From the IMG/VR virus record IMGVR_UViG_2681813234_000007: a stretch of 8,824 nucleotides of DNA. The stretch is one strand, 5' to 3'. Both the position numbers and the translations under genes were made by a program. Below the pieces are notes generated by a model that saw only the letters and a list, made by a program, of their open reading frames with translations, had not been told where the DNA came from and did not search any database. This document shows positions 840-4,200 of this stretch, one piece after another. Numbering within the stretch: position 1 is the stretch's first letter; each line of letters starts with the position of its first letter. This DNA is from a virus. Lineage: Duplodnaviria > Heunggongvirae > Uroviricota > Caudoviricetes.

Positions 840-1240
840 TGAAAAATCTACACAATGAAATTATGAATGTCATTCAGTACGCCATTGATAACCCGTATCA
901 GTTTGGAGATAACGATTGCAATATTATTGTATTACGTATTATCGATTTAATTAATGGTACTACGCAATTAGCAAATCGTGAATATACAAGCGTACAGGAA
1001 GGTATAGCAGGTCTAAAGGCTGAAGGATGGAATCATACAGGGGAGATAGTTGAACAGTACTGTAACCCCGTACAGGTCGTTATAGACGGTGATATATGGC
1101 TAGATCCTGATAACCCTTTAATTATGGCAGTGGTTGTATCAGGTCGGGTACTTGGAGTGAATGAAAGCCATGATGGCTTTGAACTTCATCCAAAACCAAC
1201 GAATGGAACATTTTATAGAGTAAGGAAACACAATGGGTAA
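839..1240 (+). CDS. small tail-tip protein in the gpK position; possible NlpC/P60-type (papain-like) peptidase
   Basis: 133-aa ORF. ATG at 839 is coupled to the previous stop; GGAAG at 826-830. The 3' end overlaps the J-like start by 8 nt. A single Cys in an [10 protein letters not shown] context with downstream His residues (H66, H111, H117) is compatible with a Cys-His peptidase; unverified. Confidence 0.7.
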
Positions 1241-4200
1241 GAGTTTAGGGGGCTTCTTTGGAGCTATCATAACTGCGGTAATTGTCGCGGCAGCCGTTTA
1301 CTTTACTGGCGGTACAGCACTGGCAGCTATCGGTTGGGGTGCTGCTGCGGGAGCTGCTTCACTGGTGGCTACATCAATGTTGGGGCAAATCGGCGTAAGC
1401 GGTTATGGGGATGTATCGGACTCACTAAGCCGTAGTACTTCCCCAACTACGGGATTACCTGTTATCTATGGCGGTGAGTTGCCACATAAAAACGGGGTAT
1501 CAGGTGGTTCATACGTACTGACAGGTTCAATTGTGTCATGGTACAACGTACCGAATAGTGAGTCTCAATATCTCTTTTCAGAACAGGCTGTAGCATATGC
1601 GGGTACTGAAAAGAATATTTTACAGATTTATATCGATAACGAACCAATTTTAGCCGTACCTATTACACAAGATGGAATAGTACCGAAAGCCAGTATTGCG
1701 GCAAAGTATCAGGAATTTCTACAATTAGAAGTACGCTTTGGTGGTGATTATACCAGTACTAAAACGTTAGCTACAGGATATGCAGGGCCAAAATGGACTG
1801 ATAAATTTCTTGGTAAAGGTATTGTTAGTATCAGTACGGTTATCAAGAAAACACAGAAATCATTAGAAAATAATATTCTCGTTAATGATCAGTTTGCTTT
1901 GACCGTTGAAATGAAAGGGCAACGTATTTTTGATTTAGTGGATGGCAGTATTAAAGCAAGTAGTAATCCACCGTCAATCATCTATGATTACTTAACAAAT
2001 ACGACGTATGGGATGGGCATTGATCCCGCATTAATTAATCTTGATACCTTCAAAGAGACGGCAGCCTATTGTGATGCTTTCGAGTACTACGCGAATGGTG
2101 CGATCAGTTACCAATCAAGCTATAAAGAAAACATAGAAAATATCTGTCAATCATTTGGCGGTATTATGTATGTCCACGCCGGACAGATTTGTATTACGAC
2201 AGACCGTAAAACCGTTTCAGTCGCGTCATTTAATGAATCTAATATGGTTGGTGCGGTACAGATTTCAACCAGTGGCGATACTGACTACTTCAATGTGGTT
2301 GATTGCAAATTCACTAACCCTGAATCAATGTACACCACGGATGTAGTACGTATACCTTCAGATATCACCGTTGATGAAGCTGTTCGGCAAGACGGGCAGG
2401 TAATCGCACTTAGTCGTGATTACAGTTGGTCATATGATCCTGATGTCATCGCTAAGATGGCAAACATTGATGTACTCAAGGCAAAGTATGCTTTACGTAC
2501 TATCAGCTTTACCACGTCCGAAGGATGGGATCTCAAGGTTTGGGATGCTATCAATGTCAGTAATGCCGAATTGAATATCTCCGGTAAGTTTAAAGTACTG
2601 AACAAGGACATTGCCACCGATCAAGAGAACGTAGGCTATGTAACGCTAACCTGCGTGGAAGCCCCTGACCAGATGTATGACGGTGTAGATCCGGGCGTAT
2701 GGTCGCCGGGTGGTGTGATTAACTTCCCTGAACTTACTGTGAAGGCTCCAACGAATCTACAGGCAGTACGCAAGGGCAACACTACCAGCGGTTCTATCAT
2801 TGATTTGATCTGGACGGCTTCAGAAGATCCGTACCTACGGGGCTATTATGTTTACTACAAACTTCACAGTACCAGTACATGGACATATGCGGGGCAAACG
2901 GGCGTACAGAAAACCACTTATGAACTGTTTGGATTGTCTGACACTGCAAGCTATGACTTTGGGGTAGAGGCGTATAACAATCTTGGTTTGGTATCGCAGC
3001 GTGTAACCCTTAACGGAATAGTACCGACTTATAACTTTGCTTTACCTTCCGTAACTGGCGTAGTACTGGCAAATCGTACTGAATCAGCGTTAACCACCGA
3101 TGCACCTGATTTTAATATTGCATGGGATTCACAGAAGAACTTAATCGTTAATGGTCGCTCGTTTTCTGATTACTTCAAGTACTACATCATTAAAATCTAT
3201 AACGGTACAACCCTTGTAGATACTTTCTATACGCAAAGCAATAGTTTCAATTTCGCTCTTGCGATGAATCGTTTAAAAGTACGTAAACCAACTATTGGTA
3301 TTATCGCACAGGGATTTAATGATGGAACGTATTCACAGGAAGTGAAAATTACAGTAGAAAACAAACAATGTGGATTAGTACAAGGCGTATCATTCACTGG
3401 TGGTTTTGGTAATTTATTTGCTTCATGGACACAATCAACTGAACGTGATTATGCTGGTGCTGTTATCAGTATTGTTAACGGGAATACCAGCCGATTGTTT
3501 ACCAGTTATGCACCTGAATTCGACTCAGTACCAAACATCGTTGATGGTGAATATAAGGTTAAGATGGGATTCTTTGACGTATTCGGCACGGACAATATTC
3601 AGTACTGTCCAGAGCAGACGATTAGTATTAACAGCAAATACCAGTTCACTGAAGAGGATGCAGATGCGATAAACGGTATTCTTGATCTCGATGACCGACT
3701 AACAGAGACGTTAGAAAACGCCGTCAATGAATCGAACGAGTACACCAATACCCGTGTTGATACATTGAAAAACACCGTAGACGGGAACACTGCAAGTATC
3801 GGTACGCTTACACAGACAGTAGCGACTAACAACACAGCACAATCACAGGCCGTCACACAGCTACGTAGTGATGTGAATGGGCAGATAGCTACCGTTAACC
3901 AACAAATGAGCACAAAGGCAACTGCAAGCACAGTAGATAGCCAGTACTCTCTATCCGTAAATGCTAATGGTACAGTTGCAGGCATCCGGCTAGTTGCTTC
4001 TTCAGGAACGGCTACAAACTCAGCTTTATATGTTGCCGCTAACAAGTTTATCGTTTCCGGTACTGATGCGGCGACCGTGGGCGGTACTGCACCTTTCGCT
4101 ATTGTTAACGGTACTACTTATCTCAAAACTGCCATGATTCAGGCGGCGAGTATTGGTACTGGTTATATTGCTGATGCCGCGATTACAAACGCTAAGATAG

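Follow-up and report, generated by a model that had tools for sequence, protein, structure and literature searches.

The 8,824-nt stretch of DNA analysed here (the window; IMG/VR record IMGVR_UViG_2681813234_000007, class Caudoviricetes) comes from an enterobacterial prophage-like element and carries a set of tail-tip genes comparable to L, K and J of phage lambda. Unlike lambda gpI, a separate polypeptide of ~190-225 aa encoded between K and J, the sequence of interest here is part of one long open reading frame (ORF): an L-position gene and a short K-position gene are followed directly by a single protein of 1067 aa. A preliminary description, made from the letters alone, had already given this layout, and the ORFs agree (Table 1). 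The ATG of the 1067-aa ORF overlaps the K stop codon (ATGGGTAA), and the stop codon of the gene at the position of the distal tail protein (Dit), at 214-216, overlaps the ATG of the L-position gene. We conclude from profile comparisons that this J-like protein is colinear with the C-terminal half of lambda gpI followed by gpJ, and that its residues 1 to ~105 share a remote homology with that half.

Between K3 and D60 the protein has no charged residue at all; this 56-residue segment (residues 4-59) is 47% Gly+Ala, and lambda gpI is equally uncharged from 99 to 157 (K98 to K158), likewise with 47% Gly+Ala. The LPVIYG strand comes after it, as the preliminary description reported, and the lambda letters given there are essentially correct, both FTAGATLAAWGAAIGAG and LPVLYGEM being present in the true gpI sequence. 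The order of parts is also that of the gpI C-terminal half (~96-223), in which an uncharged Gly/Ala-rich stretch of ~56-59 residues, a polar loop and a PV..YG..R.G strand motif precede the J hub domains; the window protein differs from lambda gpI in an insertion (12 residues) within the strand region. By its position in the alignments, the linker at residues 60-73 would be the equivalent of the gpI plug loop, defined as residues 159-175 (PMC11101478), and alignments and model together identify residues 74-110 as the predicted equivalent of the C-terminal strands of gpI (LPVLYGEMRVG...) that augment the gpJ beta-sheets. An AlphaFold2 (AF2) model places helices at 14-22 and 29-51, with low confidence, and strands at 77-79, 95-98 and 100-105 that run into the hub fold; predicted helices followed by strands are consistent with an in-chain version of the gpI module.

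For comparison with gpI we assembled gpI and J sequences from 12 diverse phages (lambda, HK97-like and T1-like phages, and phages of Mannheimia, Burkholderia, Ralstonia, Acinetobacter, Pectobacterium, Pseudomonas, Vibrio and Psychrobacter), using annotated phage records because a locus search with lambda gpI yielded near-identical copies only. Aligned by hhalign with the 12 gpI sequences, the family of the window protein matched gpI 96-207 over residues 2-100 (probability 84-88%, E=3e-6 to 8e-6), and when gpI and gpJ were concatenated the match lengthened to residues 2-176, covering gpI 96-223 and gpJ ~1-76 (probability 95%, E=3e-8 to 5e-8) in 153-154 colinear columns that span the junction. 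The P0014-type subfamily alone matched gpI 111-207 over residues 6-94 (probability 91%, E=1.2e-6) and gpI+gpJ in 155 colinear columns (probability 97%, E=1.3e-10); the window-type subfamily matched gpI+gpJ over residues 2-161 (probability 90%, E=1.9e-6). Sub-segments aligned singly also found their expected partners, residues 1-58 with gpI 96-157, the non-hydrophobic strand region at residues 59-112 with gpI 178-207, and residues 106-230 with gpJ 35-76.

A sequence of this kind may resemble gpI through convergence of composition: it would be a Gly/Ala-rich membrane segment of a general type with no kinship to gpI, LPVIYG would be no more than the strand with which the J hub starts, and the likeness would then be one of analogy. 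The segment is indeed of low complexity and has no significant direct matches of its own, composition alone produces hhalign scores of ~20-24, and reversed profiles still score 20-27. We therefore compared the real scores with those of profiles whose columns had been shuffled inside 12-column blocks, which keeps local composition (n=36 each). Against gpI+gpJ the real score was 60.9 and the shuffles gave 23.8 +/- 4.6 (maximum 37.7; z ~8), and against gpI the corresponding values were 41.3 and 19.4 +/- 4.2 (maximum 32.0; z ~5). The order of the columns thus contributes far more than composition would predict; in addition, the strand region aligns with gpI 178-207 by itself despite not being hydrophobic, and the colinearity runs on into the N-terminus of gpJ.

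Further evidence comes from Escherichia phage DCP80, the sole phage record matching the window J in its N-terminal region; no close relative of the element was found among 50,697 deposited phage genomes. The J protein of DCP80 is homologous to that of the window (E=6e-27), and its N-terminus matches lambda gpI on the strand motif by composition-adjusted BLASTP (E=2e-5; VLPLVYGEQRVGS vs VLPVLYGEMRVGS) and the C-terminal halves of gpI-family PHROGs significantly (phrog_4554, E=2e-6; phrog_32 'tail assembly protein', E=2.7e-4). When a HMMER profile of the P0014-type J family was compared with the whole PDB, the only matches at E<1 below the homologues of J and T5 pb3 were chains of the gpI family (those of lambda, Ur-lambda and T1) in colinear positions, each of them weak (E about 0.5-0.65), and gpI chains were thus the sole non-J families in that range. 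With these results on the other side, we regard convergence as unlikely. Positions ~176-313 of phrog_31 are matched both by the gpI C-terminal half of lambda (E=9.8e-5, 176-276) and by the DCP80 J N-terminus (E=8.5e-9), so this family, which holds a gpI-C-like region, already mixes joined gpI-J proteins with plain J.

Several results weigh against the homology. Compared directly with lambda gpI by BLASTP, the window N-terminus reached only E=0.19, over the hydrophobic segment only; residues 1-110 or 1-130 had no Pfam, NCBIfam or PHROG match at E<=0.1, and the values against gpI-family PHROGs were 0.18-0.4. A profile hidden Markov model (HMM) of the N-terminal segment retrieved no gpI chain from the PDB, and an N-terminal profile searched with HMMER against 1.84 billion proteins found 20 matches, none of gpI type and all of them N-termini of long proteins, or fragments. 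In the converse direction, a 12-sequence HMM of the gpI C-terminal half matched no fused protein at E<=1e-3. The window-type subfamily, taken alone against gpI, aligns only in the hydrophobic segment (E=3e-4), ~20 hhalign score units are attributable to composition alone, and AF2 confidence is below 50 for residues 1-73. The Pfam negative is uninformative because PF06805 models gpI residues 14-97 only, that is, the ubiquitin-like (Ubl) domain. Because the window segment alone is non-significant, its link to gpI depends on family profiles or on DCP80 as an intermediate. The relationship of the first ~100 residues to the gpI C-terminal half that was put forward in the preliminary description is thus borne out by profile-profile comparison (E about 3e-6), by the shuffles and by the DCP80 bridge; the profile search proposed there to examine it succeeds with family profiles and with DCP80, and fails with the window segment by itself.

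The cassette of tape measure, Dit, hub, K-position protein (Pfam DUF6950) and J was found in five lineages. In the intact relatives, namely E. kobei, DCP80 and two unrelated metagenomic/genomic lineages of P0014 type, nothing else lies between tape measure and J, which answers the question, raised in the preliminary description, whether I is separate in relatives; the gene at the Dit position in intact relatives encodes 184-208 aa and stands straight after the tape measure gene. We collected 80 DUF6950 loci from IMG/VR, 72 of them intact (six of the others are frameshifted or decayed and two are cut by contig ends). All 72 intact loci continue with a gene whose product begins with a run of uncharged residues (median length 56; 35 or more in 71 loci); near residue 75 this is followed by a motif of the type LP[VI][IL][YF]G, in its strict form in 66 loci and as single-residue variants in the other six.

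This conservation bears on the suggestion that the joined ORF is the product of a frameshift or misassembly, by which a small I-like gene that is really separate was run into J in the window contig. We found nothing in its favour, although errors and decay do occur in the group, in which the J of several decayed prophages is frameshifted. The ORF is continuous in all 72 intact loci, and assemblies made independently (E. coli, Enterobacter, Salmonella and metagenomes) show the same unbroken frame with the same N-terminus. The start of J is coupled to the stop codon of K and is preceded by a Shine-Dalgarno sequence, and between residues 49 and 227 there is no in-frame Met; we consider such an artefact barely credible. 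Many chromosomal and IMG/VR relatives have decayed, with upstream IS3/transposase insertions or with J broken into several frameshifted ORFs (L093, L094, L113, L157, L160-L163), and the relatives in E. coli 14EC007 and E. roggenkampii are remnants disrupted by insertion sequences and of no use for gene context. The group appears to survive mainly in the form of prophage remnants. The DCP80 record (PQ671644, 141 kb) is classed in Straboviridae/Tevenvirinae, yet its tail module (413-9639) is of siphovirus type, with tube, tape measure, Dit, hub, DUF6950 and J, which may reflect a chimeric assembly or a wrong classification. The record leaves two ORFs without annotation, one at 4107-4667 (186 aa) and a DUF6950-like one at 5463-5879 (138 aa).

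Table 1. Features of the window (residue numbers are those of the J-like protein).
Feature	Coordinates	Strand	Basis or remark
Dit-position (distal tail protein) gene, 3' end	1..216	+	Cut by window edge; phrog_1302 'distal tail protein', E=1.9e-5
L-position hub protein, 207 aa	216..839	+	phrog_2048 'tail protein', E=6.5e-24
K-position protein, 133 aa, DUF6950 (Pfam)	839..1240	+	Single domain of predicted NlpC/P60 fold, without JAB
Shine-Dalgarno-like AAGGA, 6 nt upstream of J start codon	1222..1226	+	Direct sequence reading
J-like hub/central-fibre protein, 1067 aa, with putative gpI-C-like module at the N-terminus	1233..4436	+	Pfam, PHROG, Foldseek
Uncharged Gly/Ala-rich hydrophobic segment, residues 4-59	1242..1409	+	Composition, hydropathy; putative equivalent of gpI helices H1/H2
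Polar Ser/Thr/Asp linker, residues 60-73	1410..1451	+	Position in hhalign alignments; putative counterpart of gpI 'plug' loop (159-175)
LPVIYG strand and two more predicted strands, residues 74-110	1452..1562	+	hhalign, transitive BLASTP via DCP80, AF2
Hub domains, residues 111-480	1563..2672	+	Colinear with gpJ from the gpJ N-terminus; Phage-tail_3 at 294-445
Fibronectin type III domain, residues 505-585	2745..2987	+	Pfam fn3, E=5.8e-5
Coiled region and lambda-type tail-tip fibre domain, residues 820-1067	3690..4433	+	PF09327, E=4.2e-20, 72.4 bits

The remainder of the 1067-aa protein is J-like, in agreement with the preliminary description. It matches phrog_31 'central tail fiber J' (E=6e-59), and its Pfam matches are Phage-tail_3 (PF13550; 294-445; 25.1 bits, cutoff 23), fn3 (505-585) and Phage_Tail_Tip (994-1044); the fn3 score of 23.7 bits is slightly below the 25-bit cutoff, and the PDB matches of this domain are the fibronectin type III (FN3) domains of titin and a phosphatase. 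In profile comparisons with the PDB, residues 232-367 match gpJ 265-417, and the C-terminal part matches 7z4b_EA (E=1.4e-14) and T1 9l9p_S. The AF2 model of residues 1-480 (pLDDT 74), searched with Foldseek, retrieved T5 pb3 (E=1e-22), lambda gpJ (E=1e-15) and the megatron of RcGTA (6tba_8A, E=1e-12), as well as the J protein of T1.

DUF6950 is the only Pfam match of the K-position protein, in which Cys27 and His111 are invariant. The predicted fold is that of NlpC/P60 (C40 peptidase, papain-like), with the conserved Cys-His pair, and on this model DUF6950 is a probable tail peptidase of the gpK/g14 type. Several public DUF6950 records (P0164, P0175, P0183, P0191, P0201 and P0207) bear the name 'ornithine carbamoyltransferase', which, given the predicted fold, appears to be a propagated annotation error. 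The L-position protein has no Pfam match, Phage_tail_L included; it is homologous to the 220-aa hub protein of DCP80 (BLASTP E=2e-19), which carries PF09931, the baseplate hub N-terminal attachment domain, so that this domain is likely present in the window protein too. As it contains a single Cys, the window hub lacks the 4-Cys Fe-S site of gpL and RcGTA g13.

Two domains that accompany gpI in lambda are missing. Unlike lambda gpI (family TAPI), the window module has no Ubl N-terminal domain, and unlike lambda gpK, the K-position protein has no JAB domain; the preliminary description had considered the Ubl part absent and K too short for the two-domain gpK, and its 133 aa are accounted for by a domain of NlpC/P60 fold alone. 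No window ORF matched PF06805 or a home-built HMM of the Ubl domain. Home-built HMMs were also run on the 80 DUF6950 loci and on 12 lambda-type control loci: the Ubl domain of gpI was found in 12 of 12 controls and the JAB domain of gpK in 11 of 12, and neither was found in any of the 80 loci. All nine phages with a separate gpI that were tested, among them lambda, have a K protein combining JAB with NlpC/P60. The JAB domain of K has been predicted to process the Ubl domain of gpI (Iyer, Burroughs and Aravind 2006, PMC1779556), and the joint absence of the two from DUF6950 loci fits this prediction and supports the view that Ubl and JAB act as a pair. A point against this view is that some Ubl-gpI genes stand beside a K with NlpC/P60 only (PMC1779556), so that the coupling is not absolute. 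Single predicted ORFs that join K domains (NlpC/P60 or JAB) to the gpI Ubl domain were returned by the gpI search from E. coli genomes (P0026, P0030, P0031, P0034 and P0047) and may be true products of read-through or frameshifting or else errors of gene calling; in lambda itself K and I overlap by 103 nt.

The closest layout among characterized tail tips is that of RcGTA and roseophage R4C, which consists of Dit, hub, a ~150-aa peptidase and the megatron, whose N-terminal 'iris/penetration' domain shuts the channel and has been predicted to make a pore in the membrane (PMC7296036, PMC10276861). The window and its intact relatives share with these systems the order of the genes, in which tape measure, Dit, hub and a small peptidase precede the J-like protein and gpI is not encoded separately, and the window also has hydrophobic helices, predicted in our case, at the extreme N-terminus of the J-like protein (RcGTA g15, R4C megatron); as in RcGTA, a single-domain peptidase of ~130-150 aa precedes the J-like protein, the hub domains match by fold (6tba_8A), and PF09931, a trait of the RcGTA-type hub, is carried by the DCP80 homologue. 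The fold match is the only link to RcGTA g15: in profile comparison with the PDB there was no sequence-level link between the window family and the g15 N-terminus (residues 1-46), a point against our interpretation. The differences are a hub with a single Cys in place of the 4-Cys Fe-S cluster of RcGTA, a longer hydrophobic segment (56 residues compared to about 45), and a C-terminal part that is lambda-like (FN3 and tail-tip fibre) rather than a fibre-binding domain. The preliminary description had left open that its zipper might be the ordinary N-terminus of a described J subfamily; the gate of the RcGTA/R4C megatron is such an N-terminus (PMC7296036, PMC10276861), and the homology to gpI stands nonetheless.

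T5 pb3 holds its plug within the hub chain and is the best fold match for residues ~110-480 (E=1e-22, TM 0.63). In pb3, however, the plug is an insertion in the HDII-insertion domain, whereas the window module is N-terminal, and the L-equivalent hub domain (HDI) is part of the pb3 chain, whereas the window hub is a separate protein. The lambda structure paper equated gpL+gpI+gpJ(N) with pb3 and drew a parallel between RcGTA genes 13-15 and lambda L, K, I and J. Fusions of TAPI and TAPJ in prophages were noted in 2006 by Iyer, Burroughs and Aravind (PMC1779556), and the window resembles them in having gpI-derived sequence and J in one ORF; it differs in that their TAPI contains the Ubl domain, whereas the window has only the Gly-rich and TAPI-C-like part, together with a K of NlpC/P60 only. 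The term 'I-J fusion' used in the preliminary description is apt as to colinearity with gpI(C-half)+gpJ, and the direction that it implies, fusion as against split, is not established: it is equally possible that the unsplit J is ancestral and that the lambda arrangement arose by a split. A candidate natural overlap of gpI and J in Burkholderia phage phiBtTUL1a (OR360541) proved to be a gene-calling error, gpI being a normal separate ORF there. That ORF (about 1507-2091) is unannotated in the record, which has two spurious small coding sequences and a 'host specificity protein J' starting at 1857, inside gpI.

In lambda, gpI is a component of the virion, and in the lumen of the tip three copies of its C-terminal part build a tripod, which supports the C-terminal coiled coil of the tape measure protein, plugs the tube and binds gpJ by three beta-sheet augmentations (PMC10721106). 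Its parts are an unresolved N-terminal domain, predicted transmembrane helices H1 and H2, the plug (159-175) and the gpJ-augmenting strands (PMC11101478, PMC10721106); binding of LamB loosens the plug, and it has been proposed that H1/H2 then move into the outer membrane (PMC11101478, PMC12617516). We think it likely that residues 1 to ~110 of the J-like protein correspond to the gpI C-terminal half and are made within J as an in-chain plug of the tail tip. The module would consist of two hydrophobic helices, a polar loop and beta-strands docking onto the hub domains of J. On the analogy of lambda gpI and of the RcGTA/R4C megatron at its N-terminus, three copies would be seated in the lumen of a trimeric tail tip, where they may restrain the tape measure protein and the DNA until receptor binding frees them for insertion into the outer membrane. 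The tail-tip set would then be Dit, hub, a single-domain NlpC/P60 peptidase and a J with its own plug, and the Ubl domain of gpI and the JAB domain of gpK would act as a pair required only when the plug is a separate polypeptide.

The segment might instead serve J during assembly, as an inner-membrane anchor or a secretion-type signal that is removed later, and so be no plug or penetration element of the virion. Its N-terminal position and hydrophobicity would suit such a role, as would the protease-like protein of predicted NlpC/P60 fold that is encoded immediately upstream. A run of 56 uncharged residues followed by a conserved strand motif is, however, unlike a signal peptide, and both the homologous gpI segment and the megatron N-terminus have been seen within mature tail tips (PMC10721106, PMC11101478, PMC7296036); we consider this explanation very improbable, and the in-chain plug remains our preferred interpretation. 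More broadly, the gpI C-terminal half and the N-terminal gate of megatron and J proteins could well represent one ancient plug and outer-membrane-penetration module, with Ubl and JAB as a handling system solely for the free module, although we would stop just short of calling this probable. The Ubl domain would in that case be a cleavable tag and JAB its protease, which would explain why gpK is needed in lambda tail assembly despite its absence from virions, and why Ubl and JAB are lost jointly once the module sits in J.

Two conserved genes of unknown function stand right after J in the window, 4482-4778 (98 aa, phrog_7961) and 4780-5436 (218 aa, phrog_4524), and may be accessory fibre or receptor-binding components; the relative in E. 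roggenkampii carries DUF8377. The tail genes are followed closely by a minus-strand phage lysozyme gene (5782-6231) that adjoins a SegE-like GIY-YIG endonuclease gene on the plus strand (6272-6721), a possible homing endonuclease gene.

The one-piece layout is known from RcGTA, R4C, TAPI-TAPJ fusions and phrog_31, so the architecture is not new, and because a hydrophobic N-terminal gate has already been described for the RcGTA/R4C megatron, the novelty of our interpretation is low; the results do not overturn current understanding. What is new is a control-tested, sequence-level link between the gpI C-terminal half and the N-terminus of such J-like proteins, a predicted fold assignment for DUF6950, and the clean co-absence of Ubl and JAB in a sizeable sample. 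The tail-tip layout of RcGTA type thus extends to enterobacterial prophage-like elements, where it is paired with a lambda-like distal J. These elements also amount to a natural experiment with two tail proteins of lambda that are not well understood: the plug part of gpI presumably works here without the Ubl domain and without the JAB domain of gpK, and this suggests that Ubl and JAB are dispensable for plug function itself.

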